Positions 18,267-34,851 of a stretch of 64,000 nucleotides of DNA are shown in pieces. The notes beneath the pieces are model-generated. The model searched no databases. It was not told where the DNA came from and was given only the letters and a program-made list of their open reading frames with translations. Both the position numbers and the translations under genes were made by a program. Position 1 is the first letter of the stretch. Every line of letters starts with the position of its first letter. This DNA is from a virus, in the IMG/VR virus record IMGVR_UViG_3300025674_000024, positions 1 through 64,000 of that record, one strand, 5' to 3'.

Positions 18267-18851
18267 TCAGAATTGTTTTCTTCTCGATTGTTTGAATTCT
18301 AGAGAAGAGCGATCCTTTCTTTTTAGAGCCGGAGGAGTTAATCCAGTTGTATCATCACCGGGGTACACTCTGACTCTTTTACCGCTGGCATCCTTCCAAA
18401 CGGAATAGCCGAAGTTTGTTTCTCTAATTGAGGGATTGCCAAGTTTCCATCCTTCAGGCGGCTGTTGACCTGCTAAGATTCTACGTGTTTCTAACGTCTC
18501 CGGATGATAGTAAAACTTGCTCCCTTTGTTTATCCTACCCTTAGTATTTCCTTTGGCTTTAGTCGCTATCTTAGCCCGAGCCTCTAGAGACTTCTTAGCT
18601 CGACTTGGCGGGGCATTTCCAAGTTGGGAGTTAGGTGATAAGTTTAAGCAGAGAGGAGTATCCCAATAGAAGTCTAGGTAAAACTGTTCTTCTGTTCTAT
18701 TCGGGTCATCGTGTTCGAGACCTATTAGCCAAAACGTATCAGCACTTATTCTTTGTGTCTTTTCGTGAGTCGCTAGTCTTCTGGAAAGATCTTTTGTTGA
18801 ACCGATGTAAAACTTTTTTGTTCTGAGATCGACTCCGCAGTATTCTTGCAT
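18267..18851 (-). CDS. Free-standing GIY-YIG homing endonuclease
   Basis: KFYIGSTKDLSRRLATH...EQFYLD...CLN; PPEGWKLG; AT-rich. Confidence 0.8.
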   Translation of the reverse strand: MQEYCGVDLRTKKFYIGSTKDLSRRLATHEKTQRISADTFWLIGLEHDDPNRTEEQFYLDFYWDTPLCLNLSPNSQLGNAPPSRAKKSLEARAKIATKAKGNTKGRINKGSKFYYHPETLETRRILAGQQPPEGWKLGNPSIRETNFGYSVWKDASGKRVRVYPGDDTTGLTPPALKRKDRSSLEFKQSRRKQF

Positions 18852-19046: not shown

Positions 19047-20060
19047 TCACTTCTTAGCTTTCTTCCAGAGGTCCGAGTCCGCTTTGCGAGCTTTCCCGGC
19101 GCCCGTGATGAAAGAGTTCACTCTGGCATGAGCCCATTGCTGCGGAGAGACTCCCGGCCGGTGTCCAGTCCTCCAAGCAGCCATGCCTCTCTCGAAGACT
19201 TGCTTAAGGATGCCGTAAGAGATGCCAGACTTCTTAGCCTTCTCTCTCAGAGACTTTTCGGAACCACCCTCCTTCATATCCTCAGAGTCGTTACCGTACA
19301 TCTTCTCGTACGCTTCGGTGGCTTTGGACTTAGGCATGGACTCGCCCTTTCTTTTCTTCCGGGCTTTGTACTTCTTGTCCGACTCCCAGTCCTCGTACAC
19401 CTCCTTAGCTGACGACCCAGGCTTCTTAGCCTTAGCCATCGTCTCCTTGATCTCTCGCTTAGCGATCTTTTGCTCTTCCTGAGTCAGCCCCTTCTTATAC
19501 TCGCGGGGCAGAGGCTTTTTTGACTCGGCGTACTCTCCCCCCTCGTCCTCAATCTCAACCTCAATACCGTCTCCGTAGAGAGCGTTATCTGCTACGGCGG
19601 AAAGATAGTCTGCGGCCATGGTGATCTTATCGACCATCCATTGCTCCATCTCGACTTCCCCGCCCGACATCATCGCCAACTCGATGGCTTTCTCGATGTC
19701 GGAGAGGCGGCCGTGCATCACTCGGAGGCGCGTGCGGACCATGTCTATGACCTCCGCCTCGCTGAATGTAGGAGTGGGGTACCCGATGGCCATGGCACGA
19801 CGGCGACATGACCTGCATCCGCACCCGGGACCGCAGCCACAACCATCACCAAAGTCTGCCTTGCTCTTAAGCGCAGTCATCAGATCATTGGCTGCTTCCT
19901 CGTAGGATTTGTCCTTAGGCTGCCCACACATGGAGAGAGCGATGGCTATAGCCTGCTTTTGGTTCTTGACGACTTTGCCGTCTTCACCCGAGTGGAGCTT
20001 TCCGGCCTTCCACTCTCTCATCACATCCCGGACGCACCCGGGACCCTTTCGTACCGGCAT
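19047..20060 (-). CDS. Multi-module putative head-associated protein (DUF6496-like N-terminus)
   Basis: VMREWKAGKLHSG...QAIAIALS; C-terminal LKQVFERGMAAWRTGHRPG...QQWAHARVNSF module; internal [FY]xE sites. Confidence 0.6.
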   Translation of the reverse strand: MPVRKGPGCVRDVMREWKAGKLHSGEDGKVVKNQKQAIAIALSMCGQPKDKSYEEAANDLMTALKSKADFGDGCGCGPGCGCRSCRRRAMAIGYPTPTFSEAEVIDMVRTRLRVMHGRLSDIEKAIELAMMSGGEVEMEQWMVDKITMAADYLSAVADNALYGDGIEVEIEDEGGEYAESKKPLPREYKKGLTQEEQKIAKREIKETMAKAKKPGSSAKEVYEDWESDKKYKARKKRKGESMPKSKATEAYEKMYGNDSEDMKEGGSEKSLREKAKKSGISYGILKQVFERGMAAWRTGHRPGVSPQQWAHARVNSFITGAGKARKADSDLWKKAKK

Positions 20061-20368
20061 TAGCTGCGCTCCTTATTGTACATAAGCATGTTTTTGATGG
20101 AGTCCACCTGCTCTACGAGGTAGTCCATCTTCTTAGCTCCGTCACTCATGCGAGCGACAAACTCCTCCCGGAGAACAAACTCCTTCGGGAGATTGACCTC
20201 GAGGGCTTTCAAGTCCCTTTCAACCTTTTCAATGTCTTTCTCGTTCTTATCAACCATCTCAGCGATCTGGTTGAAGCGACGGTCGATAAGCTTCCCATTA
20301 CGTTCGGAGGCCCAACCGGCCGCACCAAAGATGGCGAAGACGATTGGGACAACGATACCGCTGATCAT
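20060..20368 (-). CDS. Membrane-anchored coiled-coil protein (holin/lysis-associated candidate)
   Basis: N-terminal TM helix then heptads; LPKEFVLREEF. Confidence 0.55.
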   Translation of the reverse strand: MISGIVVPIVFAIFGAAGWASERNGKLIDRRFNQIAEMVDKNEKDIEKVERDLKALEVNLPKEFVLREEFVARMSDGAKKMDYLVEQVDSIKNMLMYNKERS

Positions 20369-20387
20369 CTCGATCACGGCTACCCCA

Positions 20388-20849
20388 TCAGAAGAACTTG
20401 AAGCCGCTGGAAAGGATGAGAGGAGCAGAGGCCTTAGCGATGTCAATCACCTTGTCCTTGCTCACGCCCTCTTCCATCTTCAGCACGAGCTCAGCGATTT
20501 CCAGTGATTTGCGGCCTTCGGGTGTGTTAGCGTCAAGCTTCTTCGACTTGGCGACGTCTGGGAGGAACTTCTCTTTGGCCATCTGCACAGCGGCCTGCAC
20601 CTCTTCGTTTGTCAGAGCGCCGTCACCCACCGAGTCAAAGGCGAGTTCGAGCACGGTGTCGATGGTGCTTCCGTCCCAACCGGAGTAGTACTTATCCAGG
20701 AGAGGGTCAACAACGTCGTACACCTTACCCAGGAGGGGAGCGTACTTACGAGCGTTGACTTTCTCCAAGAGGACTTTGGCGCCCATGGTGGCAACGCCGA
20801 TGATAACCCCTGCAATCGCGGGGTAAAGTGCTTCGATAAATGTTGGCAT
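20388..20849 (-). CDS. Membrane protein, holin-like candidate
   Basis: N-terminal hydrophobic helix ALYPAIAGVIIGVATMGA. Confidence 0.5.
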   Translation of the reverse strand: MPTFIEALYPAIAGVIIGVATMGAKVLLEKVNARKYAPLLGKVYDVVDPLLDKYYSGWDGSTIDTVLELAFDSVGDGALTNEEVQAAVQMAKEKFLPDVAKSKKLDANTPEGRKSLEIAELVLKMEEGVSKDKVIDIAKASAPLILSSGFKFF

Positions 20850-20863
20850 TGTGACCTCCAAGA

Positions 20864-21349
20864 TCACTCGGGTAGACCGGACTTGCCGGCTTTAAGACGA
20901 TCGCGAACGCTCTTGGGAAGCCCTCTCTCCCAACCAAACTTCTTCGCGATCGAAATAATCTTGCGCATCACGGTGTCCGGATTTTTCGCTCTACCAACGG
21001 ATGACCAAGCCGCGGAGACGTCTCCGGGAGATGCAATCGGGAATGACATATCCGGACCGGCAAAACCTCCTTTCATCTCACCTTCCGACAGCGACTTTCG
21101 CATATCGGACGACCACTCACGATGAGAGACACCGTATGTATCCTCCTGATAGGAGATTTTGTTTTGTCGCGCCATGTCCATTCTTTGGCGACGACGGCCC
21201 ATGATTTCCTTCATGATATCATCACCGACGAGATACTCATTACGATCTCGCGGGATAAGGGCTTCAACTTTAGCCCGACGACGCTTATTCGCCTCGAGCT
21301 TACTCATGGCGACATTGTCGCCGATCAATGTGTCACGCAGATTCATCAT
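20864..21349 (-). CDS. Putative head protein with capsid-like N-terminus and DUF6582-like C-terminus
   Basis: GAGGAGG SD then MMNLRDTLIG; FAGPDMSFPI...DV.AAW...GRA. Confidence 0.7.
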   Translation of the reverse strand: MMNLRDTLIGDNVAMSKLEANKRRRAKVEALIPRDRNEYLVGDDIMKEIMGRRRQRMDMARQNKISYQEDTYGVSHREWSSDMRKSLSEGEMKGGFAGPDMSFPIASPGDVSAAWSSVGRAKNPDTVMRKIISIAKKFGWERGLPKSVRDRLKAGKSGLPE

Positions 21350-22043
21350 CGGAGTCAACCTCCTCCTCTTCTTCAATTGGGTCTTCTTCGGAGTCGGTTT
21401 CCTCGACGGCCTCAGTTGGTTCCTCTTCTTCGTCCTCTGCTTCCGCTTCCTCCTCATCTCCCTCGAGAGTCAGGTTAGCGGACAGAGAGGCGAGTTCTTC
21501 CTTGAGAGCTGCGATCTTCTCCGCCACGGAGATGGCATCATCACCCTTTTCCTCATCACCCTCTTCCTCCTCATCGTCAGACTCTTCCTCGTCCTCACTC
21601 TCCTCATCTTCCTCGGACTCCGTTAGGATCTCGTCAAGAAGAGCATCGAGCTCCTCGTCTGTAAGATCACCGATTTTGTCCTCCTCCTCATCCTCTCCTT
21701 CCTCCTCAACCATCTGAGCGGCGAGAGCTAGGAGCTCCTCGTCGGAAAGGTCGGAGAGGTCGATGTCTTCCTCGATCTCATCCTCGTTCTCAGAACGGAG
21801 AGCGGAGAGAAGGTCTTCCTGACTCTGCTTGGTGTCCATGTAGTCTCCCTTTCCGTCGGGATACTTCCACAGACCCGTCTTGTCGAGCCAGTCCGCTTTG
21901 AAGGGTGCGGTCTCCAACCCGAGTGTGTCACTACCGATCTTAACACCGGCGGTTTCCACATCCTCAGCTTGGGAGAGTTGGTTAGAGTAGGCTTCCCTCA
22001 GTTGGTCGTAGGCCTCCTGAGAGAATTGACCGAAGCCTGACAT
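21333..22043 (-). CDS. Highly acidic protein (scaffold/core-like)
   Basis: Long D/E tracts; GQFSQEAY leader similar to effector-array genes. Confidence 0.7.
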   Translation of the reverse strand: MSGFGQFSQEAYDQLREAYSNQLSQAEDVETAGVKIGSDTLGLETAPFKADWLDKTGLWKYPDGKGDYMDTKQSQEDLLSALRSENEDEIEEDIDLSDLSDEELLALAAQMVEEEGEDEEEDKIGDLTDEELDALLDEILTESEEDEESEDEEESDDEEEEGDEEKGDDAISVAEKIAALKEELASLSANLTLEGDEEEAEAEDEEEEPTEAVEETDSEEDPIEEEEEVDSDDESA

Positions 22044-22101: not shown

Positions 22102-22263
22102 TTAGAGGTAGGCTGCGGCGAGAGCTTCTTCTTTCGTGACCTGCCCGCGGCGCTGCATCTCCTCGGCGAGGTCCAAGAGACGCTCGGCCTCTTCGTTCTT
22201 GCCTTGGAAGATGAGTTCCTTACGCTTAGCAATAAGGTCGAAGTACTTTGATTTGGATGCCAT
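22102..22263 (-). CDS. 53-aa helical protein after kinase (candidate immunity/partner)
   Basis: Hand translation MASKSKYFDLIAKRKELIFQGKNEEAERLLDLAEEMQRRGQVTKEEALAAAYL; starts 2 nt after kinase stop. Confidence 0.7.
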   Translation of the reverse strand: MASKSKYFDLIAKRKELIFQGKNEEAERLLDLAEEMQRRGQVTKEEALAAAYL

Positions 22264-22265
22264 GA

Positions 22266-23981
22266 TTAGATCCCGTCGTAAAGTTCGTTGATGTACCGTT
22301 CTGCGTCTTGGTCAGTCATCCTACCAAAGATCCTGTTAATTCCGTCCATGGAAGTGCGGATCTCCGCATTGACTCTGACTCCGAAGTCTTCCTCCATCTT
22401 GTCTCTCACTTTCTGAGAGTTGGACACGAAGCGTTGGACAGAGCGAGTGTTGTAGTCCTTAACCCGCATACGGTCCGCTTGCCAGTCACGGCCATTGGTC
22501 GTTCCGAGAGCCTCAATGAGAGCTGCTTTAGGACTAGTCTGAGCGAGACCGAAGTCCACGAGCCCGCCCTTGCCAGTGCTCTTATCGTAGAAGAAGTTCC
22601 CGCCGTGCATGTCGTTGTGAGCGACGCCGCGAGTGTGGATCGCTTTGCGTACGCGGAGATACTCGTCAGTCGCCGCTTCTTTCTCCTTAGAAGTCATCTG
22701 CCAGCGTTGGTCACCGTACGGCTCTCCCGCCATGCGAGACATACCAAGGTAGCCCGAGGCTTCCTTTACGTGACCACCTAAACCCCCCATCACTATCTTA
22801 GCCTTCCCAGAGACCGTGGCTCCGTGTAGAGTTGGCGTCACACCGCTTCCCTCAAGCTTTTTGATTGCAGCGGCTTCAAACTCTCCAATCTTCCCTTGCT
22901 TCGTGACTCCCGGAGGAGGACCCTCGGTCAGCTTCACTCGACCCATAGCGCCTTGGCCGATGAGCTGTCCTGGACCAGACATGTCTTTCTTCGGGTCATA
23001 ACCTTTAATTCCTTGCGGGATGTCAAAGCTTGTCTTCTCACCCACAGCTTTACCTCTTTTCGCTCTCCCTCCAGCACCCTTGGGAAAAGCACTGCTAGAC
23101 ACGCCTCTTTTACGAAGCTCACCTTCCACTCTCTTTCGCTGGTAAGCGTTAAGCTTCTCCTCCTTAAGGATTCGCATAAGCTCGGGAGTACGAGCGCCCT
23201 GGAGAAGCTTCTTGTTAACAACCATCGCTTTCTTAGGCGGGAGTGTTGAAAGTTTAGCAGCGGCTTTAGCGGCTTTAGCTTTGGTAACATCACCTGCTCG
23301 AGCTATCTTTTTAAGATCCTGCTGCATCGCTCTTTCAATGGAGCCGTAGAGTTTCTTCGCTACAGGATCCTTGGCTTCTTCCTTGGCCTTGCGAACTCGA
23401 GCCAAGCCCTTTTGCATTTCTTGAATCTTATTCTCTATGGCCAGTGTCCCTTCACCCTTAGGCTTAGGGGGAGTAGGGGGCGCCTCTCCCAGCACTCTCC
23501 TCACCATCTCTCGGCGAGCGGCGAGACCGCGAGACCCGGCCGCGAGCTGTTCACGCTCGAGAGACCGCTTTCCAAGCTCTTCCAGCGGACGGTCCTTGGG
23601 CTTTTGCTGTTGATCCTCGTCCTTAGGCTTTAACCTCTCTCCGAGGCGACGAGCGGCGGACTTAAGCGGAGCACCTTTCTTAACGATCTTGGCACCGTAC
23701 TTCTCACGGACCGCATCCGCTACGGACTTCACATCTGCTTGCTTCAGGCCTCTTTCCTTGGCCTTCTTCGCGATTGCGGGCATGCCCTCTCCGGGCTTCA
23801 CAGAGATAGGAGTTCCTTTGCGGCATTGTCCCTGAGTGCCGTACACGCTTCCATCGCGACGTTGGCACAGTTGCGCAAACTCGAAAGAGTCGTACTCTCC
23901 CTCGCTGAATTCTTCTACGAGAGAGTCTTTAACATACGAAAGAAGTTCTTCGTCGAACTCCCCGTGTTGCGAAAGCTTCAT
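22266..23981 (-). CDS. Cys-motif protein with C-terminal Ser/Thr-type protein kinase domain
   Basis: IGQGAMG G-loop, HNDMHGGN catalytic loop, DFG; N-terminal CQRRDGSVYGTQGQCRKG. Confidence 0.85.
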   Translation of the reverse strand: MKLSQHGEFDEELLSYVKDSLVEEFSEGEYDSFEFAQLCQRRDGSVYGTQGQCRKGTPISVKPGEGMPAIAKKAKERGLKQADVKSVADAVREKYGAKIVKKGAPLKSAARRLGERLKPKDEDQQQKPKDRPLEELGKRSLEREQLAAGSRGLAARREMVRRVLGEAPPTPPKPKGEGTLAIENKIQEMQKGLARVRKAKEEAKDPVAKKLYGSIERAMQQDLKKIARAGDVTKAKAAKAAAKLSTLPPKKAMVVNKKLLQGARTPELMRILKEEKLNAYQRKRVEGELRKRGVSSSAFPKGAGGRAKRGKAVGEKTSFDIPQGIKGYDPKKDMSGPGQLIGQGAMGRVKLTEGPPPGVTKQGKIGEFEAAAIKKLEGSGVTPTLHGATVSGKAKIVMGGLGGHVKEASGYLGMSRMAGEPYGDQRWQMTSKEKEAATDEYLRVRKAIHTRGVAHNDMHGGNFFYDKSTGKGGLVDFGLAQTSPKAALIEALGTTNGRDWQADRMRVKDYNTRSVQRFVSNSQKVRDKMEEDFGVRVNAEIRTSMDGINRIFGRMTDQDAERYINELYDGI

Positions 23982-23984
23982 GAG

Positions 23985-25841
23985 CTACCTACTGCTTACT
24001 CCAAAGATGATCTGGAACCAAACTTCCTCATCTTTTTCAAGACTTTCGGCGAAGTCTAACCCCTCAATTTTACCGTTCTTAATCACCCCGGTCAGCAAGT
24101 TATTTCCCTGATGCTTAAACCCAAGTTTTTCGTACGCTTTTCTACGAACGTCGCCTCCACCATCCTCATCAAAAGCGAACGCTCTTACTTTCGTCCCGCT
24201 AGGAAGTCCGCCAAGAGCTTCATCAAACTGTCTCTTCGCTGTAAGAGCAATTCTTACCTGCTGACGACGGTCTGTGACTCCACCTTTGGTGTAGGAATCG
24301 TTGACCTTATAGCCAATCTCATAAGATCCGTCCGTCTTTGGAGTGACGAGAGTCTTAACTTCGTTACTCCCAACCTTATCAGTGATGTACACTCCCTCAG
24401 AGTCACTAGAGACTTTGTCTTTGCTTTCTCCCTTCTTCAGTCTCTCTTCTACTTTCTTAATTTTCTCTCCTCTCTTCTTGGCCTCTGGGCTTCCCTTTTC
24501 TTCTTGCGCCTTAATCTTTGCGGCGACGCTCATCGCTTCCCTGTTAAGTCTCAGGGCCGCGTCCATATCACCCTTAGCCATAGCCTCCTGAGCTCTCTTT
24601 GCTAAGCCAGAGTACTGAGTCTGAAGGTCGGGTTCTGCTTTCTTTTTAGTTTTAGGCTTAGTTGCTGTCGGCTTCCCTGAGAGTTCTTTCTTTGCTTGTT
24701 CCTTTGTCTTCTTTCCCTCTGCCACATCGAGAGCGGCTTTCGCTCTCTTGTTTCCAGAGGCCGCGGCTTTCTTCAGGGCCTTCATCTCTTTGGGACCCAC
24801 GGGAGTACCTTTCCGACAGGTTCCCGAAGTCCCATAGAAGGTCCCGTCCGCACGCTGACAACGAGCAAACTCAAGTGAATCCGCTTCGTTAAAGTCGTTT
24901 TTCTTATCGGGAGCTCCAAAAATAGCGATGTACCACAGAGCTGTGTCTTTGTCCTTGCCCTCTGCAAACATCAGGAGAGTGCTGCCTAAACCTTGCTCGG
25001 CCCTGTCGGAGGCACTTACTTTTCCACCTTTTCCAATGCGCCCATACTGTGTCCCAGGATTTGCATCGGTTCCAGAAGTCGGATCTGAAAAACCCATTCG
25101 TTTATAGGCTCTAATTCGAGACGCGCCTCGCCCGTCCTCTCCCCAAGCTGTAGCTTGAACTACATAACCTTCAGGCAAGTTTTGTCTATGAGCGTTCCAG
25201 ACACGCTGAACTTGGCGAGCAATAGCCATTTGCTCTTTCCGGTCTGTGATTTGACCAGCGTCATACTTGCCGTTGACTTGAAAGTTAAAATCGCCTTGAC
25301 CAAATGATGTGGTAACTACTGTTCCTCCAGGAGTTGTGAAAGTAGTTCCAAGAAATCCATTAGACTTAAATTCAACTTTGGTTCCTTTTGGAACGTCTTT
25401 CGTGACTCCTTCCACAACTTTTTCTGAGTTGGTGATGGGCTTGAGAGACTTTTCAGCTCGCTCTTTCATGAACCCTGCAAATTCATCTTCAGGGTCTTTT
25501 TTCAAATACTCGTTTGCTTTCTTTATTTGGTCTTCATAAATCTTTTTGTCTTTTTCAGCCTTAGCAATAGGACCGAGGGTACCCTTTAGGGTGCCACCTC
25601 TTTCGTAGTCAGTAGGCTTTTTAGGAGTTGTCTTTCCTTCAACAACTTTCAAAGCTGCTTCAGCTTTTTTATTGCCGCTTTTAGCCGCTTTCTTCAGAGC
25701 ATCGACTTGCTTTTCACTAACTTGCTTTCCTTTGCGGCAAGTTCCAGCAGTGCCGTAAAATGTCCCATCGGGACGTTGGCAACGAGCGTAGTCAAGGACT
25801 GTGTAAGCGCTCTCTGAGAATGTGGAGTACGTACGTTTCAT
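23985..25841 (-). CDS. Internally duplicated Cys-motif protein with two GNAT-like domains
   Basis: Two CQRxDGTFYGTxGTCRKG motifs; RIRAYKRMGF and RRKAYEKLGF resemble the GNAT C-terminal motif. Confidence 0.65.
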   Translation of the reverse strand: MKRTYSTFSESAYTVLDYARCQRPDGTFYGTAGTCRKGKQVSEKQVDALKKAAKSGNKKAEAALKVVEGKTTPKKPTDYERGGTLKGTLGPIAKAEKDKKIYEDQIKKANEYLKKDPEDEFAGFMKERAEKSLKPITNSEKVVEGVTKDVPKGTKVEFKSNGFLGTTFTTPGGTVVTTSFGQGDFNFQVNGKYDAGQITDRKEQMAIARQVQRVWNAHRQNLPEGYVVQATAWGEDGRGASRIRAYKRMGFSDPTSGTDANPGTQYGRIGKGGKVSASDRAEQGLGSTLLMFAEGKDKDTALWYIAIFGAPDKKNDFNEADSLEFARCQRADGTFYGTSGTCRKGTPVGPKEMKALKKAAASGNKRAKAALDVAEGKKTKEQAKKELSGKPTATKPKTKKKAEPDLQTQYSGLAKRAQEAMAKGDMDAALRLNREAMSVAAKIKAQEEKGSPEAKKRGEKIKKVEERLKKGESKDKVSSDSEGVYITDKVGSNEVKTLVTPKTDGSYEIGYKVNDSYTKGGVTDRRQQVRIALTAKRQFDEALGGLPSGTKVRAFAFDEDGGGDVRRKAYEKLGFKHQGNNLLTGVIKNGKIEGLDFAESLEKDEEVWFQIIFGVSSR

Positions 25842-26119
25842 CCGCTGAAGAATCCTTTGCTGTAGAGAGACTCGCCGTAAAGGATGGCTGCAGCTGTGGA
25901 ATTGGCAACATCCTCCAGGTCAGGTACATCATCGCCACGCTCGGCCATGCGAGTGAAGAAGGAGATGAGAGCGAAAGCACCATCTAAGTCTGTGAACTCG
26001 TCTCCGATGAAGTCTCCGCGACGAATGCCGTAGGGACTTCCATCTTTCGCGAGAGCGATGATGATGAAGTTGGAGCCGGGGATGGAGATGGGCTCGGGAA
26101 GGTAGAAGAGTTGGTTCAT
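25838..26119 (-). CDS. 93-aa protein after DUF3626-like gene (candidate immunity/partner)
   Basis: ATGA-coupled at both ends; acidic. Confidence 0.7.
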   Translation of the reverse strand: MNQLFYLPEPISIPGSNFIIIALAKDGSPYGIRRGDFIGDEFTDLDGAFALISFFTRMAERGDDVPDLEDVANSTAAAILYGESLYSKGFFSG

Positions 26120-27885
26120 TTGTAGTAGCGAGAGATGGCCTCGATGTCCCGGTAGTTCGGGTCAGTGCGCTCGATCTTGAGATCGTTCATCTGAGGAGGA
26201 AGTTCCACGATCCTCACTCCCTGCTTCTCGAGCGCTCTGCGGGTAGCGGTGGGGATGTCGTGTCCTCTGTAGTATCTTACCTCTTTGATATCCGAAGTGC
26301 GTAAGCCGCCGTGGATCTGAGCTTCGACGTAGGCGGTCGGGAGGCGCATCCCGCCGTCCATTGACGTCGTCATATTCATACGCTGACCGATCGTCCCGCC
26401 ATTGTACTGGATGTCCTGCACCTGCGTGCGAGGGCTGCTCGGGTTAGCCGGGTCACGGACAGGACTGGCCATGATGCCCCTCGGCCGAGCTGCGTCCAGA
26501 GAGTCCCCAACAGTAAAGGTCGAGCGGTCCTTAACGCTGTTGTTAAAGACGACTTGCACTCCTCCGTACTGCGCCATCTGGTTCGGACCACCCTGCAGGG
26601 AACGAGCTCGGTCCGGGTGCTCCAGCGCTGCGTACACCGGGCGCTTTTCCGGAGCTTCCAACTTCGAGATCCCCATCACAGCCTCCTCTCCGCTCCTTCT
26701 TCCTTCGAGGTACCCGCTCTTGCCTCGCTTGATACCGCCCGTTCCAGCTTGGAACCCGTTCTTCGCCTCTCCCTCTTTGACGAACTTTGCGAAGCCTTTG
26801 GGGTTGAAGGCCATGACGGGTTCTGCACCGTCGAGAAAGTCCTTGAGGTCCTTGTCAGCACCCCCTCTGGGGACTCGAGTCGGCACGGACGCTGCGACTG
26901 TCCCTCCACCGTCAGAAGGAGCTTTGGTGAGCTTTATTGGTTCCCCAAAGTACGCCGCGTTGACTCCGTCGCGTGGCAGGTCGTTAGCTTTGATCCTTAG
27001 GTCGGTAGCCCTGGCTTCGAGAGCTTTTGACGGGTGGTCCTTCGGCGTGTTGTACGCATTGAATCCGTCTTTCTCGGCCAGCTCTCTAGCCTTCCGATTC
27101 AGCCGATCAGACTCGTCTGTCAGCTTCTTACGCTCTCCCGTGGCCTTGATGAACTCATCGCGGTCCTGCGCGTGGTAGGCTTGACGCATGAGGAGAGCGG
27201 CTTCGTGAGCCTTCCCGATCTTTGCGGAAAGGGCCTTGACCTCCGGATCTTTCCAGTCCTTCCCCTGCTTCGACAGCTCCGCTGCTTGCTCCTTGAGTTT
27301 AGCTTCTCGGTCGAGAGCTCGGTTGAACACCTCCTTGACTTTTTCGTCGGAGATCTTCGTCGGGCGCTTGCCCGAGTCTTGTGCCGGAGCGGAAACTTCC
27401 TCTTTCTTCTTCTCCGCTTTTGGAGTAGTAGCCTTGGGTGCCGGTGCAGGTTCTTCCTTCTTAGGCTTAGGCTCGGGTTTGACCGAGGCGGGCTTAGGCG
27501 CGGGTGTGGGAGTGAAGTCGGGCTTTACCTCCTCTCCCAACCTCTTCTTAATCTCTTTGAAAGCCGCTACGAGCTCCGGCCCCTTCTTAATCTGCTTGAC
27601 GCCGAACTTCTCTCTCACTTGGTCCGCGATGGCTTTCACTTCGGCGCCCTTGAGACCCGCGGCCACGGCTTTCTTATAGAGCACGGGCATACCCTCACCC
27701 GGCTCGAGAGTGATCGGCTTTCCTTTGCGACACTGCCCACTCGTTCCGTAGACGGAGCCGTCTGGGCGCTGACACGCTTGGCCAAACTCGAGAGAGTCGC
27801 TGAGTTCGGAGTAGCGGAGAGTGAGCACTTCACGTGCTTTAGCTTCTAAGGAGGAGTCCCAGCCTCCGTGTTGTGAAAGTCTCAT
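26116..27885 (-). CDS. Cys-motif protein with C-terminal DUF3626-like domain (possible ART fold)
   Basis: RPVYAAL...QYGGVQVVF...RSTFTVGDSL...YVEAQIHGGL. Confidence 0.7.
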   Translation of the reverse strand: MRLSQHGGWDSSLEAKAREVLTLRYSELSDSLEFGQACQRPDGSVYGTSGQCRKGKPITLEPGEGMPVLYKKAVAAGLKGAEVKAIADQVREKFGVKQIKKGPELVAAFKEIKKRLGEEVKPDFTPTPAPKPASVKPEPKPKKEEPAPAPKATTPKAEKKKEEVSAPAQDSGKRPTKISDEKVKEVFNRALDREAKLKEQAAELSKQGKDWKDPEVKALSAKIGKAHEAALLMRQAYHAQDRDEFIKATGERKKLTDESDRLNRKARELAEKDGFNAYNTPKDHPSKALEARATDLRIKANDLPRDGVNAAYFGEPIKLTKAPSDGGGTVAASVPTRVPRGGADKDLKDFLDGAEPVMAFNPKGFAKFVKEGEAKNGFQAGTGGIKRGKSGYLEGRRSGEEAVMGISKLEAPEKRPVYAALEHPDRARSLQGGPNQMAQYGGVQVVFNNSVKDRSTFTVGDSLDAARPRGIMASPVRDPANPSSPRTQVQDIQYNGGTIGQRMNMTTSMDGGMRLPTAYVEAQIHGGLRTSDIKEVRYYRGHDIPTATRRALEKQGVRIVELPPQMNDLKIERTDPNYRDIEAISRYYK

Positions 27886-28079
27886 TCTTTCTCCACGCTT
27901 CGCTTTCTCAACTCCGCCTCTATTGCCTTTCGCCCGCGCTGTGCGAGTTTATCTTTCGTCTTATTTTCTTTCTCTAGAGAATCCGCTTGACTAGGAAGTC
28001 CAAAAATGTATGGATCACCAGCCTCACTTCGACCCATCCTCTCCCGCACTTCTTGAGGTCTTTTAGGTTGAATTTTCAT
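27882..28079 (-). CDS. 65-aa protein after ART gene (candidate immunity/partner)
   Basis: Starts 2 nt after ART stop; ATGA-coupled to next gene. Confidence 0.65.
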   Translation of the reverse strand: MKIQPKRPQEVRERMGRSEAGDPYIFGLPSQADSLEKENKTKDKLAQRGRKAIEAELRKRSVEKE

Positions 28080-28081
28080 GA

Positions 28082-29713
28082 TTAGACTTCCTCCACGGTG
28101 AAGATGTGCATCGGCTCGCCCTCAAATGTTTCAACGCGGTGGTTCGTGTATCTATATTTTGTGCCGCCAGGAGTTAGTATCTCTTTCTCGCCGCTCTGAC
28201 CAAAGTTTTCAACTGAAGCTCCGGTTCTATTACGCGTTTCAAAGATAACTCTCGCGCGATCTTGCACGACCTTACCGGTATATCCCGCTGAGATAAGGGC
28301 ACTAGTAGACCACGAAGCCGGTGCGGGATCACTAAAAGTACTCTTAGATTGCGCTGCTGAAATCATCTGATCTAGCGCTGAACTCGGAATGTTAATTCCA
28401 CGGTACTTTTCTACGTCAGGATGGTCCATTCGCGAAAGCATTTGATCGATTCTCTGCGCTTGTTTAGCCCGTATTGAATCGGACCCTGGCTGTTCAACTG
28501 CCCGTCTAATCGCTCGATAGTCATTTCGTGTGAAGTCGACGATGGAGTCAATACCTTTTTGAACTTCACGCTCGTCTCCACCGTATGCCTTAATAAGAGC
28601 TTTTGCCTGTTTAGACGTACCTAATTCACCCCATTCTCCAAAAATCGCTGTAGAGTTCTTATGCGCCCCATTTTGAGAAGGATTAGAGTCAGAATCCAGT
28701 AGTTTGATCATACTCCGCGACATTTCATATTTACTAAACCGCTCATTGGGGTCTAATTTCGCATATTCAATCCGGCGGTCTGCCTCTTCCACCCTGTCTT
28801 TAATCGGTTTCAAAAGCGCCTGTCTTTCTGTCCAAGAAGCCCCACTTTCTAAAAGTTTCATATCGTTCTCTTTCGCGACTTTTAACTCTTTTTTTGCTTG
28901 TGTTCGGTCACGAATTGCCACAGCCATTTCTTTCAGATCTTTCGCATCTCTTAAGTTTATGAGATTGTAATAGCGTTCTTGATTCTCATCAGAATCACCG
29001 GTAGCTTTTTTGCGAAGTTCGCGAAGACTGCTTATTTGATTGTTTATGCGAATTTGTTGGGCTTCTGTGAGTTGTTTAGGCGTAGGTCTTGAGAAGATAC
29101 CTCCCTCAATTGCTTTTCTATCATCAGCGATTCTTTGGAGTTGGTCTCGGATAGTGTACATCCGATCGTCAGCTTCGTCACTTCCCGTCTTTTCAAACTC
29201 TTCCTTAGCTGCTTTCATTGCAGCTTTAAGTCGAGTTTCTGTGGAATTGATTAGCTGAAGAGCCTCTTTTTTCTTCGTCTCAGCGTCAGAACCATCCGTC
29301 TCCTCTTTTACCTTTTGTTCCTCTCTATTTAAGTTCCTACGTGCTTTTTTACTCTTTTCACCAAGCTCTCCGTCTTTCTTCTCATCCTCAGCCCTACCTT
29401 GCTCAGGCTTCTTTTGGCTTTTTACGGGCTTTGGAGCGGGCTTGATCGCGCTAGAGGCCTCTTGAGTTGCTGACGGTTTGAGCCCAGGTTTTTCTGGGTC
29501 CTCCGTCCTAGAAAGTTTCTCAAGTGCTTTCTTTGCCCCGGAGTCTCCAGCTTTTGCTTTAGCCTGCAACTCTTTAATCTCTCTGGGGCCGACCTCCTTG
29601 CCTTTACGGCATTGTCCAGAGGTTCCGTAAAAGCTCCCGTCTGAGCGCTGACATCTTGCAAAGTCAAGGACTTCTAAAGCTTGCTCTGAAAATGTTGAAT
29701 AAAGTCTTTTCAT
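28082..29713 (-). CDS. Cys-motif protein with C-terminal R-S-E ADP-ribosyltransferase (VIP2/Alt-like)
   Basis: KYRG, SWSTS, GEKEIL catalytic motifs; start at ATG 29713 (MKRLYSTFSE), ATGA-coupled. Confidence 0.85.
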   Translation of the reverse strand: MKRLYSTFSEQALEVLDFARCQRSDGSFYGTSGQCRKGKEVGPREIKELQAKAKAGDSGAKKALEKLSRTEDPEKPGLKPSATQEASSAIKPAPKPVKSQKKPEQGRAEDEKKDGELGEKSKKARRNLNREEQKVKEETDGSDAETKKKEALQLINSTETRLKAAMKAAKEEFEKTGSDEADDRMYTIRDQLQRIADDRKAIEGGIFSRPTPKQLTEAQQIRINNQISSLRELRKKATGDSDENQERYYNLINLRDAKDLKEMAVAIRDRTQAKKELKVAKENDMKLLESGASWTERQALLKPIKDRVEEADRRIEYAKLDPNERFSKYEMSRSMIKLLDSDSNPSQNGAHKNSTAIFGEWGELGTSKQAKALIKAYGGDEREVQKGIDSIVDFTRNDYRAIRRAVEQPGSDSIRAKQAQRIDQMLSRMDHPDVEKYRGINIPSSALDQMISAAQSKSTFSDPAPASWSTSALISAGYTGKVVQDRARVIFETRNRTGASVENFGQSGEKEILTPGGTKYRYTNHRVETFEGEPMHIFTVEEV

Positions 29714-30126
29714 TGTTCGTCGGCTCTGTTCATCTGTCCCTTGATCTTCTCTGCCCAGGCTTTGCCGGCATCGCCTCCCCATAACTCCCAAGAAACTTTT
29801 GAAGCGGAGGGTGGGTTGGTAGTGTGGTTCTTCTTGTAGGCGGAGTGACGAGCGAAGAAGCTGACCATGCGACCAATCGTCCCGGGAGAGAGTTTCTGAC
29901 GGTTCTTCAGCGAGGCGGCTCGAGCCACTCCGCTTCCGATCCCGGCTTTCCCGGCCTCCTTAGTCGACAGTCCACCGCGTCCCACTTGTTTGCGCAGAGC
30001 GAGACCGCGAGCGGCGGCATCAGCCACGGACTGGGGAGGGCGGAAGTCTATGTTAGCATACTTCTCCGCCCACTCCGGATTCTCGGCCCACTCGAGAGCC
30101 TCTTCGCTGAAATGTCCGCCAATCAT
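29710..30126 (-). CDS. Putative head-associated protein
   Basis: PP..V...AARGL...GVARA..L...RMVSFFARH...WELWGGDAG.AWA domain common in phage head modules; HFSEEAL leader. Confidence 0.7.
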   Translation of the reverse strand: MIGGHFSEEALEWAENPEWAEKYANIDFRPPQSVADAAARGLALRKQVGRGGLSTKEAGKAGIGSGVARAASLKNRQKLSPGTIGRMVSFFARHSAYKKNHTTNPPSASKVSWELWGGDAGKAWAEKIKGQMNRADEQ

Positions 30127-30728
30127 CGCGCTCTCACGACTTTGTTTTTGATCCCTCTCTTAATGGCTTCCTCAGTCATCGCTCTGCGGCGTTGCTCAGG
30201 AGTCATATTAGCGAGTTCAGCCTCGCGCTTAGCACCTTGGCCGCTCCGCATCTCCACCTTAAGGCGGTCCCCCATGGCCTTTTTGATGATCTTGAGTGTC
30301 CCCTCCTTGGCGTCAATATCTCCTTCATCCACGGCCTTCATCACAGCTTTGTGGATCTTTCCGAGGTGAGCTGTGGTCTCCGCTTTAGCGTACACCTTGT
30401 CAAAGAGTTTGTCGTGTGTGTCTCCCCACGAGTAAGCTTCCGACTTAGCGGCTTCTTTGACCTCGGCCAATGCGGAGGAACTCATAGGCCCTGCGCCACC
30501 CTTGGGAGGCTTCACACCGAGATCCTCAGGGCTCACCTCTTTGCCCTTGCGACACTGGCCTCCAGTGCCGTACTTGGAGCCGTCAGGGCGTTCGCAGGTG
30601 GTGAAGTCGTACGCTTCGGAGAAGCTCTGGGCGCTCTCGTCGTAACTGTCTGAAGCACCGTGCTTTTCAGCGTAAGCCGCATAGAGCTGCTCGATGGATT
30701 CGGGTTTAAAGGTGCCTTGGGGTTTCAC
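30123..30728 (-). CDS. Cys-motif protein, short unknown C-terminus
   Basis: FSEAYDFTTCERPDGSKYGTGGQCRKG. Confidence 0.75.
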   Translation of the reverse strand: MKPQGTFKPESIEQLYAAYAEKHGASDSYDESAQSFSEAYDFTTCERPDGSKYGTGGQCRKGKEVSPEDLGVKPPKGGAGPMSSSALAEVKEAAKSEAYSWGDTHDKLFDKVYAKAETTAHLGKIHKAVMKAVDEGDIDAKEGTLKIIKKAMGDRLKVEMRSGQGAKREAELANMTPEQRRRAMTEEAIKRGIKNKVVRAR

Positions 30729-30831
30729 GGGTCTGAGGTAATTAAGCCTATTTTAAACCATCTAAGCGGGTTACCCACGCTCCTTGATGATCTTGTCGAT
30801 GCGACGAACTTCAACTTTTTGAGCGGCTCAT

Positions 30832-31494
30832 CTACATGCGCTCCATCTTCTTCGCACGAGCGAAGTCGGCTTTTGCCTGAGAGTTACTAGTATAAGCTAG
30901 TGCTCGCATCCATCCCACTAACTCTTTTCTGTCGTAACTATCAAGGATTCCGCCTTGATCTCTACGCTTTTTCAAGAGCTTTTTGATGTTGTCAGCATTG
31001 ATCTTAGCCTGACCCCCCTGCTCTTCTGCTCTCGCAATGGAGCTTTTCACGGCCGGCATAAGCTTTCCTTCGCCACCACTCCCTCTTTCGACGACTCTGA
31101 GGATTGTGCGAGAGTCTTTAGACGCTTCTTTTTTGATAGCCTCGAGCTCACTTAGCGTCTTCTCGTCGCCAGCACGGCGCTGAGCTGCTCGCTCGAACAT
31201 CCCCTTGGTCTTAGCGGCAGCGGTGGCCTTGTCCTTTTCGCGGCGCATGACGGCTGGGTTGCTGGCCGCGCCCTGCTTGAGCTTCTCGGTGGGGGTCATC
31301 TCTTTCGCCCCAGCCTCCTTGCCCTTGCGGCACTGACCGCCAGTTCCGTAGAAGCTACCGTCGGGGCGCTGACAGCGGGCGAAGTCGTAGGCCTCGGCGT
31401 AGGCCAGTTGGTCCTCGGGATTCTCCGAGTACTTGAGTTCGGCGAGGGCTTTGGCGGCGGCCAACGCTTCGTCTGTGAAACGGTCTTTCCGCAT
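30832..31494 (-). CDS. Cys-motif protein, basic helical C-terminus
   Basis: YAEAYDFARCQRPDGSFYGTGGQCRKG; GGGTAAAA at 31531-31538. Confidence 0.75.
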   Translation of the reverse strand: MRKDRFTDEALAAAKALAELKYSENPEDQLAYAEAYDFARCQRPDGSFYGTGGQCRKGKEAGAKEMTPTEKLKQGAASNPAVMRREKDKATAAAKTKGMFERAAQRRAGDEKTLSELEAIKKEASKDSRTILRVVERGSGGEGKLMPAVKSSIARAEEQGGQAKINADNIKKLLKKRRDQGGILDSYDRKELVGWMRALAYTSNSQAKADFARAKKMERM

Positions 31495-31554
31495 GAGTCT
31501 GCTTTAATAGGAATGGGTTCCTCTTTTGGGTTTTACCCATTTCAATTATACACT

Positions 31555-31596: not shown

Positions 31597-32253
31597 TCAA
31601 TCGTCGTATCTAGCTAAGACGTGAAAGACTGAGGAGTTCTTAAGTCTTATGGACTCAGCAACGTACAAGTCTGGATCAACAATTTGCTCGAACGAGTACC
31701 CCAAAGACAAAAGCTTAACCATGTTCCCGTACGTTTTCCATTTCTTCTTTCCTAGAGCTTTAGCTATGCGATATCCCGTGGAATGCCCGCTAAGATACTC
31801 TCCCCATGCCGCCTCATACTCCCCCTCGGTCCAATGCTTCCTCTTTGAAGCCGCGGCTCTTTGAGCCTTTATCGCCTGAGAATCAGAATACTCTGGCGTC
31901 CCCCTGTGCTTATCGTGCATTTTCCTCGCTCGTTCTTGAGCTGGTTTCCACATCAAGCCTTTACTTTTTGCCTCCTTGATCTTTTCCATTAAGGCTAAAC
32001 TTCCTCTTTCTCCGCCCTTCATTGCTGCTTCCACTAAGGGAAGATAGGAGTCTTTGCCATGCCAAACATGAGCGTGAAAACTTGGAGAGCAAACGTACAG
32101 ATTGCTTGGGTCATTAGTTCCACCTTGACTTTGAGGGATGCGATGGTGAACGTGCATCCCTTTCATCTGCTGATCCGTAAGACCCCAGTTCTCTTGAGCT
32201 ATAGCCCTATAGTGTCTACGATCAACTTTGACTAGGCTAGACTCCTTCTTCAT
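31597..32253 (-). CDS. Free-standing HNH homing endonuclease
   Basis: HVHHRIPQSQGGTNDPSNLYVCSPSFHAHVWH; TAATG-coupled to phoH. Confidence 0.88.
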   Translation of the reverse strand: MKKESSLVKVDRRHYRAIAQENWGLTDQQMKGMHVHHRIPQSQGGTNDPSNLYVCSPSFHAHVWHGKDSYLPLVEAAMKGGERGSLALMEKIKEAKSKGLMWKPAQERARKMHDKHRGTPEYSDSQAIKAQRAAASKRKHWTEGEYEAAWGEYLSGHSTGYRIAKALGKKKWKTYGNMVKLLSLGYSFEQIVDPDLYVAESIRLKNSSVFHVLARYDD

Positions 32254-33068
32254 TAGTCTTCGTACCTGCTAAGGATTTTGCCGATCACGGAGTTTCTCAC
32301 TACATCTTCTCGTGTAAACCTCACTCGAGCCACTTCATCAATGTTTGCCAACCGGTGATAAGCGTCTAAGAGGCCGTTGTCTGAGTTGAAAACCTCAAGA
32401 TCAACCTGCTTAGTATCACCAGTGACTACAACTCTAGAGTTTTCAGAAACTCGAGTCAAAACAGTCTTGACATTATGGATAGTACTGTTTTGAGCCTCAT
32501 CAAAGATGATTAGACTATCCGCAAAGCTTCGTCCTCGAATGTCCTCCAGCAGGATTGGCTCAATGAGTTTCTTGTTCATTAGGTACTCAGCTGCACCCTG
32601 AGAGCGCATGATCACTGAGAGATTATCAAACACCGGACCTACTAACGGGGCCATCTTTTCTTCCATAGTTCCAGGAAGAGCACCACGGCCTCTTTGGTGC
32701 ATAACTCCAACGTCAGAACGAAGGTAGAACACCTTATTGATCAAGTTTTTCCTGAGTGCCTCAAGTCCCCAGTGAAGAGCGACAAGAGTTTTACCAACTC
32801 CACTTGGACCAACGGCTATGGTCACAGTATGGTGGTTGATTGCTTCCCACAGATCATCTTGACGGTCAGTCAGAGGATTGAACGGGAGCAGATCCATCGT
32901 GTTGCGGTGGACGTCGCTCAACATCGCAGCTTCTCGGGCCCGACGTTCTTTACGACGCTCTTTGCAGGCTGGCATTATGTTAACGGAATTGAAGGTTTGG
33001 GTGTCGACTCGGACAACTCTTAGGCGATCATGCGAATCACCTCCATTCCCGCTTGATGTAGTATCCAT
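32253..33068 (-). CDS. phoH: PhoH-family ATPase
   Basis: GPSGVGKT, LPGTMEEKMAP, IRGRSF, FDEAQN, TGDTKQVD, DVVRN. Confidence 0.95.
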   Translation of the reverse strand: MDTTSSGNGGDSHDRLRVVRVDTQTFNSVNIMPACKERRKERRAREAAMLSDVHRNTMDLLPFNPLTDRQDDLWEAINHHTVTIAVGPSGVGKTLVALHWGLEALRKNLINKVFYLRSDVGVMHQRGRGALPGTMEEKMAPLVGPVFDNLSVIMRSQGAAEYLMNKKLIEPILLEDIRGRSFADSLIIFDEAQNSTIHNVKTVLTRVSENSRVVVTGDTKQVDLEVFNSDNGLLDAYHRLANIDEVARVRFTREDVVRNSVIGKILSRYED

Positions 33069-33090
33069 GGCTCGAGAGCTTTGGACTCGA

Positions 33091-33162
33091 GAGTTTTACC
33101 CGGAGAGTCCGTGAGGAGAGTAAGAGAGCCGTAAGTGTCCTCTCCTCACAGTGTCCTCTCTC
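33091..33162 (-). promoter_or_regulatory. Second GAGAGGACAC x2 + GGCTCTC + GGGTAAAACTC cassette
   Basis: gtgtcctctc at 33135-33144 and 33151-33160; TTTTACCC at 33094-33101. Confidence 0.55.
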
Positions 33163-34851
33163 CTAGTCAATGCCTACATCGTAACGTATATCCTGTCTCC
33201 CTCCTCTCCCCTTACCGAAGAATAGGCTGCTCTCCGCAGGTGTGAGCAACTCTCTCCTCCTCCCAGTCTTCATCTCTCCGAACTCTTTCATCAGATCTTT
33301 ACGACCCGAGCTCCTGCCTAAGCTACTCCTCAGAGCGTCGTTAAGCTCCGCTCCTCCCCCGTCAAGATGGAACATGTAGTAGGTACACGCCCAGACGACG
33401 GAGTCTGTACGGTCATCATGAGGGACGTGAGGGAACGCTGTGAGTTCCTTGATGAAGTCCTGAACCCACGCCCCATCTACGAACTTCACTCGTTTGGCTT
33501 CAAAGAGCGGGCATATCGTCTGGAGTCGGATCGTCTTGGACTTCAGAGGCTTAAACGGATGGACTTGGATCTTGCTCTCGCGTTCCAGCACCTGAATGAG
33601 TGATTGCCCAGAAGCGGCTTGCTCGATCGTCATGAAGCGTGCGCCATAATACTTCTGAGTCTGCTCCACCATGGCCATGAGGTCTGGGAATCCCCATCTC
33701 CCGTGCACAAGCTCTCGGATGTAGATGTTGTCAGGATCTTTGCGACTAAATCCCGCTACGCATATCACACTCTCGTCAGCCTGTTGCCTCTCGGAGAACG
33801 CCGTGTCGAGTGATAGGTAGGTGATGTCAAACTCCGGACACTCGTCTGGGTCTATGACTTGGACCCACCCGGCCTTGACAATAGAGCCTTCCTGAGCCGT
33901 CGGAGTCCCTTGGTACAACGCGGCGAACTTACTGCTTCCCATCGCGCGCTTTTGCGACAAGAGCATGTCCGTCGTGAAGACGGGGTTTGATGGCCAGTGA
34001 GACTCTCCGTTCTTACGGCCTAGAGGGTCTGTAGACTCGTTCTCGCAGATCCCGGGGATGTTGATCCAACGCCAGCCCGTCGGATTCTCCACCTCATCAT
34101 ACATCCCGTCGCCGTCCATGAGAATCCCGTGAAGGTCTCTTTCATGGAAGCGCGTGCCGATGAGTATTTGCGCCCAGCGGTTGGTGCGGCGTGTGGAAGC
34201 TTGTTCACCCCAGAAAGTCTCAAGACCTTCTAAAGCGGCTCTAGAATCAGACCCCTTCAGTGGGTCATCAATAACGAGGGCCCCAACTCCGGGACTGTCC
34301 ATCGCAGGTGTACCCGCCGTGAAGCCTGTAAGAACTCCTCCCACTGAAGTAGCTAGGATGTATCCCCCTCCTCTTATCCCATACTTTTCATCTGGGATAA
34401 AGCCCTGCCACTCTGGGAATACTTTCGTAAAATATTTATGCCTTAAGTACCCAAAGATCCCTCTATGAAACTTGTTGGAGAGCTGCTGCCCGTACGAAGC
34501 AATGATGTGCTGGGTCTGTTGATCTCTCCCAAGTAGCCATGCTACAAAGAGTTGAGAGAGCATAGACTTCCCAGAACGAGGCGGGCAAGAAACGATAAAG
34601 CGTTGATAGCGCCATTCCGCCACATCTTCAAACCCAGAAGCTATGATTTCATGAAATGGCTCCACCACTAACTTCCCATCAAGCATAAGATCAGAGAAGG
34701 CTAAAAAGCAACTTCTTGCTGCTCTATACTTATAGTCTAAGATGATACTTTTCGGGGCCTCCATGACCGTGAGTTCTTGGAGCCCTCTCTTATAGACTCT
34801 CCAGGAAGAAAACTCTTCTAGTTGAGAGACATGGCTAATGATAGGCCTCAT
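33163..34851 (-). CDS. terL: Terminase large subunit
   Basis: PPRSGKS Walker A, VIDDP Walker B, TRFHERDL, ALYQG, SLDTA, HDDRTDS. Confidence 0.95.
   Translation of the reverse strand: MRPIISHVSQLEEFSSWRVYKRGLQELTVMEAPKSIILDYKYRAARSCFLAFSDLMLDGKLVVEPFHEIIASGFEDVAEWRYQRFIVSCPPRSGKSMLSQLFVAWLLGRDQQTQHIIASYGQQLSNKFHRGIFGYLRHKYFTKVFPEWQGFIPDEKYGIRGGGYILATSVGGVLTGFTAGTPAMDSPGVGALVIDDPLKGSDSRAALEGLETFWGEQASTRRTNRWAQILIGTRFHERDLHGILMDGDGMYDEVENPTGWRWINIPGICENESTDPLGRKNGESHWPSNPVFTTDMLLSQKRAMGSSKFAALYQGTPTAQEGSIVKAGWVQVIDPDECPEFDITYLSLDTAFSERQQADESVICVAGFSRKDPDNIYIRELVHGRWGFPDLMAMVEQTQKYYGARFMTIEQAASGQSLIQVLERESKIQVHPFKPLKSKTIRLQTICPLFEAKRVKFVDGAWVQDFIKELTAFPHVPHDDRTDSVVWACTYYMFHLDGGGAELNDALRSSLGRSSGRKDLMKEFGEMKTGRRRELLTPAESSLFFGKGRGGRQDIRYDVGID

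Follow-up and report, generated by a model that had tools for sequence, protein, structure and literature searches.

What is the role of six neighbouring viral genes whose products begin alike and end differently? The genes lie in a 64,000-nucleotide stretch of DNA (hereafter, the window), positions 1–64,000 of the 85,659-bp IMG/VR record IMGVR_UViG_3300025674_000024, and form an array in which each unit consists of an N-terminal two-cysteine module, a basic Lys/Pro-rich or coiled-coil linker, and a variable C-terminal domain. We propose that the six are paralogues encoding cargo of a large cyanomyovirus with a Mu-like head, and that their module-marked products are carried by the virion and delivered to the host, a reading whose chances we consider about even.

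A six-frame scan with the pattern C-[QE]-R-x-D-G-[ST]-x-Y-G-T-x-G-x-C-R-K-G yields seven matches in six open reading frames (ORFs), all on the minus strand. The seven copies of the cysteine motif reported in an earlier note on this DNA were thus all recovered in place, by the scan and by a profile search. The latter assigns E-values from 1e-24 to 1e-28 to the known copies and finds no eighth copy across the 85,659-bp record. Twelve of the eighteen motif positions are invariant among the copies, while their pairwise DNA identity is 61–79%. Hence the copies are old paralogues whose likeness is maintained by selection at the protein level; recent duplication or gene conversion as the source of the similarity is ruled out by the same values.

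The array ORFs adjoin with 4-bp overlaps and share their strand with the packaging and tail genes. The Lys/Pro-rich linkers are visible in the ORF translations, as the earlier note had it. Its assignments of the C-terminal domains (a protein kinase, two GNAT-like domains, a DUF3626-like domain, an R-S-E ADP-ribosyltransferase and two unknowns) fared unequally. Gene p220 (30832–31494, minus strand, as are all array genes below; 220 aa) combines the module (hairpin 31321–31374) with a 150-aa C-terminus, and p201 (30123–30728, 201 aa, hairpin 30543–30596) likewise joins the module to a C-terminal part. Neither C-terminus contains a domain recognisable by Pfam, PHROGs or NCBIfam, so both stay unassigned. 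Homologues of p201 are present in distant arrays at 42–44% identity.

The pART gene (28082–29713, 543 aa from the ATG) encodes the module (hairpin 29600–29653), a basic, coiled-coil linker and an R-S-ExE ADP-ribosyltransferase-like C-terminus. The match to ADPrib_exo_Tox extends over profile positions 23–178 of 196 (E 0.033), but its score of 14 bits is below the cut-off of 23.4. The same region aligns at 27% (E 5e-6) to the ADP-ribosyltransferase (ART) domain of P0018, a relative with ADPrib_exo_Tox among its precomputed Pfam domains, and the YRG, SWSTS and GEKEIL motifs (R, S-x-S and E-x-E, respectively) are in register. The nearly full profile span and the motifs weakly suggest an ART, notwithstanding the score.

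The p589 gene (26116–27885, 589 aa) encodes the module (hairpin 27721–27774), a Pro/Lys linker and a possible DUF3626-like C-terminal domain; DUF3626 is the domain of Salmonella SopF (PMC6682159). The match is partial (24.3 bits against a cut-off of 27, positions 42–122 of 301 only), hence the similarity to the SopF family is faint. A search of the PDB with a small profile of three homologues found no chain for this C-terminus, SopF included.

The p618 gene (23985–25841, 618 aa) contains two tandem units, each formed by a module (hairpins 25728–25781 and 24807–24860), a linker and a domain with a GNAT-like fold; the two domains are 32–33% identical to each other. The AlphaFold2 model of the domain has a pLDDT (predicted local distance difference test) of 81, and the best Foldseek E-value is 0.015. 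Of the 50 best structures found by VIA, most are GNAT-type acetyltransferases, superimposed over 100–127 residues with a root-mean-square deviation of 3–4 Å, but Z is only 5.2–6.5, and there is no Pfam match. It is plausible that both predicted domains are GNAT-like, at a similarity below the level safe for fold identity.

The p571 gene (22266–23981, 571 aa) consists of the module (hairpin 23814–23867), a basic linker and a protein-kinase-fold domain. This assignment was upheld: the isolated domain scores 24.9 bits with APH (cut-off 23.2), the Pkinase and ABC1 profiles match the same loop, and the catalytic motifs GQGAMG, HNDMHGGN and DFG are present. In a metagenome of 2024, one contig agrees with the body of p571 but diverges from the window exactly at the edge of the Cys-hairpin (23812); a related strain may thus have a cassette boundary there, as seen in this single contig.

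Three small ORFs without the hairpin, p138, p65 and p93, are interspersed in the array with 4-bp overlaps. The product of p138 (29710–30126) begins with MIGGHFSEEALEWA. The p65 ORF (27882–28079) has no homologue in the retrieved relative loci. The p93 ORF (25838–26119) is downstream of p589, and it is also placed after p589 homologues in three distant relatives (L015, L019, L030).

The module itself comprises about 35–45 residues, a short acidic leader helix, usually with F-S-E before it, and then a two-Cys beta-hairpin ending with the basic R-K-G. The conserved unit is [FY]-[SNA]-E, about eight helical residues, and [DE]-[FY]-x-x-C...C-R-K-G, with [FY]-[SNA]-E ahead of every hairpin. The two invariant cysteines are 13 residues apart across the predicted hairpin. 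The AlphaFold2 model, based on 78 aligned modules and having moderate confidence (pLDDT 77), places a helix at residues 10–15 and a hairpin at 19–22/28–31, with Cys21 in strand 1 and Cys35 just ahead of a short third strand, after which the linker helices follow. The module matches no model in Pfam, PHROGs or NCBIfam, nothing in the ESM Atlas and, by sequence, nothing in the PDB. No analogue of the predicted fold was found by Foldseek (best E 3.2) or by VIA-align among 48,161 chains (highest Z 2.7). The module is unnamed in the literature, as far as it could be searched, the motif strings giving chance FGF matches only, and neither Iyer et al. 2017 (PMC5512222) nor a 2021 jumbo-phage survey, searched for a cysteine module, mentions one. 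The tag is in none of the libraries searched.

Is this arrangement peculiar to one phage? Among the 8000 best candidates of a set of 5.8 billion proteins, 409 match the seven-copy profile. In 1.84 billion representatives, 984 clusters (50% identity) are found at E<=1e-3, and 392 of them at E<=1e-10; all are unnamed. In the 234 retrieved proteins the first cysteine has the median position 27 and is situated at or before residue 60 in 207 cases, and two units are present in 27. The segments following the module in these 234 proteins form at least 65–94 BLAST clusters. Pfam domains seen among 214 relatives are kinase folds (about 18), ARTs (about 13), DUF6496 (three), one cytidylyltransferase and DUF3626, and many family members have short, non-enzymatic basic or coiled-coil tails. 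Thus the joining of a constant N-terminal module to interchangeable C-termini is genuine and widespread, the attached C-termini are highly diverse and mostly unknown, and related phages differ in their payload.

One explanation that bears on the cysteines assigns no address role to the module. It would be a structural or regulatory element, that is, a redox switch or an oligomerisation or metal-bridged knuckle, keeping the enzymes inactive in the producing cell and active after entry. The two cysteines are indeed the only invariant side chains with chemistry, and the ART and kinase payloads would be harmful if active during assembly. However, the short non-enzymatic tails of many family members need no regulation, and a single chain offers no His or Cys partners for a metal site. 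We consider this explanation distinctly improbable.

The family is almost exclusive to phage sequences: 185,579 species genomes yield four matches, all on contigs of metagenome-assembled genomes, three of them short. We identified 47 loci in IMG/VR, most with three to seven tandem module genes on one strand. All module-bearing contigs that include marker genes belong to one phage lineage. The slot formed by TerL, PhoH, the array, the acidic protein, p197, p159 and the tail fibre is retained in L003, L004, L006–8, L013, L027 and L041. Besides the tail fibre, these loci retain p398, TerL (68–82%), PhoH and the acidic protein, together with p197 and p159, whose identities reach 84%, while the module genes within the slot vary in number, size and payload. 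More distant relatives, with TerL identity of 60–63% and the Mu-type portal, have, besides arrays elsewhere, a lone 203-aa module gene between the tail genes and the head-tail adaptor.

L003 is part of a complete genome, a contig of 149,878 bp with direct terminal repeats. Near-identical array contigs were found in several metagenomes (aquatic, freshwater, marsh and marine samples), thus the phage of the window is widespread. Three metatranscriptome libraries contain contigs at least 99% identical over most of the array and its flanks; this is a weak hint at transcription of the array, as strand, level and timing are not readable from them and carry-over of DNA is possible. On two contigs, of 277,244 bp (L031, L039, L048) and 189,900 bp (L034, L049), the array and structural genes are repeated at several places. 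The relatives of these contigs are 75–85 kb fragments, and the contigs may be concatemeric or mis-joined assemblies rather than jumbo genomes.

Are the products carried by the virion? Among 50,697 phage records, the only module carrier is Synechococcus phage S-CBWM1, which is also the closest cultured phage, a 139-kb non-T4 cyanomyovirus with TerL 51% identical and a matching gene order. According to PMC10665884, which cites Xu et al. 2018, its virions contain an NMNAT-like protein and the APH, ChoK and Rio2 kinases. The whole S-CBWM1 annotation has a sole NMNAT gene, at 26693–27352, and the product begins with ...LDFTRCERPDGTAYGTAGTCRKG, that is, with the module, fused directly to an HxGH nucleotidyltransferase. 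Since this gene is single and its product is module-initial, the NMNAT-like protein cited from the virions implies that a module-bearing enzyme was found in purified particles. The kinase domain of p571, in turn, is similar to the RIO-like kinase of S-CBWM1 (24% over 218 residues, BLASTP E 1e-9), the gene of which is situated ahead of the tail fibre gene, in the position matching p571. Given the cited virion reports of the NMNAT and of the p571-kinase homologue, the suggestion of the earlier note that these are virion-loaded, host-modifying enzymes is reasonably supported as regards carriage of such enzymes in this lineage. The presence of kinases and NMNAT in virions of the S-CBWM1 group is already published, in that second-hand account, whereas the shared N-terminal module is not mentioned in the accessible papers on S-CBWM1. 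The second module gene of S-CBWM1, gp165 (120899–121372), encodes two F-S-E repeats, the hairpin and a basic coiled coil; the genes for the tail sheath, portal and protease begin two genes downstream of it. Unlike the phage of the window, S-CBWM1 has these two module genes in total and no array.

Several points weigh against virion carriage by means of the module. The phage of the window is uncultured. The proteome of S-CBWM1 virions is known second-hand, through PMC10665884 on Xu et al. 2018, and several other papers citing the latter contain nothing on virions. The NMNAT gene of S-CBWM1 is located among non-structural genes. The other kinases cited as detected in the virions have no module: the N-terminus of the APH-like kinase is of another type, with Cys4, and the ChoK-like and RIO-like kinases lack both kinds of N-terminus. 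Hence, if that account is correct, the module is not required for virion association, and the part of the earlier claim that ties loading to the tag is left weaker than the part on carriage. In the distant relatives mentioned above, large arrays are situated about 40–50 kb from TerL. The restriction to one lineage fits simple inheritance equally well as a lineage-specific docking partner. Finally, the moderately confident predicted fold of the module has no structural analogue, which is to be expected at so small a size, and offers no functional clue.

Accordingly, one may ask whether the module acts inside the host cell, as a targeting or binding domain that tethers the enzymes to DNA, RNA polymerase, the ribosome or the thylakoid or cell membrane; virion loading, where present, would then be set by the leader, by the basic linker or by nothing specific. 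The module-less kinases of the cited virion account and the non-structural surroundings of the NMNAT gene agree with this, as do the conserved basic R-K-G at the end of the hairpin, followed by very basic linkers, and the internal location of the module in the 27 two-copy proteins, which means that a free N-terminus is not needed. On the other hand, the position of early-needed enzymes in the packaging/tail-fibre block is hard to explain unless they are carried by the particle, the sole tagged protein with data is, by the same account, in virions, and neither Foldseek nor VIA shows any likeness to a known nucleic-acid- or protein-binding fold. We regard this host-side role as unlikely.

Returning to virion-carried cargo, we envisage the following sequence of events. 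Judging by its position between terminase/PhoH and the tail fibres, the array would be expressed late; the products would enter the virion while the head assembles and reach the next host together with the DNA, and the enzymes would modify host proteins there. The shared module would most likely serve all of them for docking or as an address, and the cargo may be kept on the packaged DNA by the basic linkers. For the window proteins we infer packaging, the address role of the module, injection, the host targets and any processing at F-S-E. A more specific proposal is that the module is a self-contained, transferable capsid-loading domain read by a head component (the scaffold, the portal or the inner shell), so that any fusion is packed and delivered, that the lineage uses it as a plug-and-play system with about a thousand cargo clusters, and that the head protease trims or separates the units at F-S-E. 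We advance it tentatively, rating it less likely than not.

The F-S-E tripeptide occurs 13 times in the window proteins, 3.6 occurrences being expected. The C-terminal part of the Mu-like head protease/scaffold protein (PF10123; 54640–56703, minus strand) contains the block G-L-E-x-G-T-[LM]-[EN]-F-[SA]-E-G-E-[TS], kept from the window to S-CBWM1 (L061, L062, L066–L068). Many module proteins have the hexapeptide F-S-E-G-E-T of the scaffold in their leaders; the string is ...DFSEGETYDFTRC... in an L019 protein and EEFSEGEYDSFEFAQLC in p571. Judging by these strings, F-S-E-G-E-T might serve as a site for the head protease or as a binding epitope common to both; cleavage by the head protease at F-S-E itself seems doubtful. 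In the predicted structure F-S-E is at the start of helix 1, hence its role may be structural only. Away from the module and the scaffold, conservation of the F-S-E sites is only partial. That the module leader is homologous to the scaffold C-terminus was considered and rejected, as hhalign aligned seven columns only, with a probability of 0.8%.

How does the array compare with known systems? The closest known analogue is in phage T4, where the internal proteins IPI–III and Alt are diverse, fast-changing, head-packaged and injected proteins, an ADP-ribosyltransferase among them, that have in common only the N-terminal address (PMC3012670, PMC5512222). As in the array, their genes are situated among packaging and structural genes, and the cargo is variable between related phages. 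A conserved tag with cargo hypervariable between related phages is also what is seen in the module family (984 clusters, 47 loci). The differences are in the tag and in the protease. The T4 capsid-targeting sequence is a peptide of about 10 residues, whereas the module described here is a folded unit of about 35–45 residues with two cysteines and, unlike the T4 sequence, can also be internal. The head protease of the window is Mu-like (PF10123) and not of the T4 gp21 type, which cuts at [LI]-x-E. The S-CBWM1 virion proteins, as cited, belong to the same lineage as the array and include a homologous kinase and an NMNAT-like protein with the same module, although the kinases are module-less. As far as could be searched, the module, the size of its family and the polymorphic arrays are new, while the principle of a tag with variable packaged cargo is already known.

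Polyvalent proteins, with 2–15 domains per giant polypeptide, are predicted to be packaged and injected and to exchange cassettes (Iyer et al. 2017, PMC5512222). Four domain types named there are ART, kinase and GNAT, all three of which have counterparts here, and Pol-beta nucleotidyltransferase; the cytidylyltransferase of the module family differs in fold from the latter. Unlike polyvalent proteins, the genes described here, except the two-unit p618, have one payload each, behind a common header. No LPD or MuF Pfam domain matched the array proteins or the 214 relatives.

The earlier note likened the array to MuF polymorphic toxins, which temperate phages encode (Jamet et al. 2017, PMC5576092) and which likewise have a constant N-terminus, a variable toxic or enzymatic C-terminus and a presumed virion route. 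However, the array N-termini have no match to MuF (SPP1 gp7 / Phage_Mu_F) in Pfam or PHROGs at E<=0.1, and the MuF-like protein of the window is encoded by a separate gene (53723–54643, 306 aa) that follows the protease/scaffold gene. Since the array proteins have no MuF domain, the likeness is an analogy only. As an aside, the C-terminus of the MuF-like protein contains a Cys-rich block, C-x-x-C...C-R-C-H-D-R-C-R-C, typical of MuF/SPP1 gp7-like minor head proteins, and its PHROG match is limited to the final 60 residues.

The same comparison leads to another explanation, namely, that the array is a classical polymorphic toxin-immunity system, directed against competing phages or bacteria or serving superinfection exclusion, with p65 and p93 being immunity proteins. 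The constant N-terminus with the variable C-terminus, the variable content of the arrays, the 4-bp coupling of the ORFs, and p93 following p589 homologues in three distant loci would all be in order for such a system. Yet Pfam and PHROGs reveal no secretion or MuF-type trafficking domain, and the immunity-gene logic of MuF toxins is not evident in the array: the p93–p589 pairing is kept, p65 has no conserved partner in the retrieved loci, and next to p618 and p571 there is no small partner at all. Moreover, the phage appears to be lytic, and no immunity protein is required for an enzyme that is carried by the virion and acts on the host. We consider this explanation highly improbable.

If the module is indeed a loading address, it would define a large uncatalogued family of about 1000 clusters, carried into picocyanobacteria by abundant aquatic cyanophages at infection. 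The cargo would span kinases, ADP-ribosyltransferases, acetyltransferase-like and nucleotidyl-transferase enzymes and many unknowns. A search for the tag in metagenomes would then provide a direct list of candidate host-takeover and anti-defence factors. It would also extend the capsid-targeting principle of T4 to a Mu-like head, as a second and structurally different example, and would possibly be a handle for loading foreign proteins into cyanophage particles.

Nearly all genes of the window are on the minus strand. The head block comprises the Mu-type portal (PF06074), the Mu-like protease/scaffold, the MuF-like protein and the major capsid protein. It is followed by the baseplate and tail genes, the head-tail adaptor, TerL, PhoH, an HNH endonuclease and the array, and then by the acidic protein, p197, p159, p128, p337 and the tail fibres. 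The upstream flank of the array (31597–34851, minus strand) contains TerL (33163–34851), PhoH (32253–33068) and the HNH endonuclease (31597–32253). The downstream flank (19047–22043, minus strand), kept in relatives, contains genes for the acidic 236-aa protein, p197, p159, p128 and p337. A scan for promoters and terminators gave fewer sites than in shuffled sequence.

The p337 gene (19047–20060) encodes DUF6496, a cysteine cluster G-C-G-C-G-P-G-C-G-C-R-S-C, a P-T-F-S-E site and DUF5824. Fusion of DUF6496 to the two-Cys module is seen in three relatives, one of which is P0013. Another N-terminal peptide was noticed in two S-CBWM1 proteins, gp106 (L001:19107–20669), an HNH-containing 520-aa protein encoded right after PhoH, and the APH-like kinase (L069:6743–7699) reported from virions. 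Both begin with K-[KR]-C-x-x-G-K-S-C-G-S-A-C followed by [SE]-F-[EP]-E-D, and by its sequence this Cys-rich peptide looks like a second N-terminal tag of the lineage. Five homing/HNH endonuclease genes are present in the structural region (14093–14710, 18267–18851, 31597–32253, 34854–35456 and 51907–52644), one of them directly upstream of the capsid gene.

The hairpin-less p138 is the best-conserved array member among the relatives, 78–80%. Its domain (phrog_2859) is widespread, being found in Vibrio, Roseobacter, Limnohabitans and Synechococcus phages, where it is situated in the head-morphogenesis module (L070:4995–6968; L071:6019–6327), a location that speaks in favour of virion-carried cargo. 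In the Vibrio phages it forms the N-terminus of a 657-aa coiled-coil protein encoded between the MuF-like and capsid genes, that is, in the scaffold position, and in S-CBS4 it is encoded between the portal and head protease genes.

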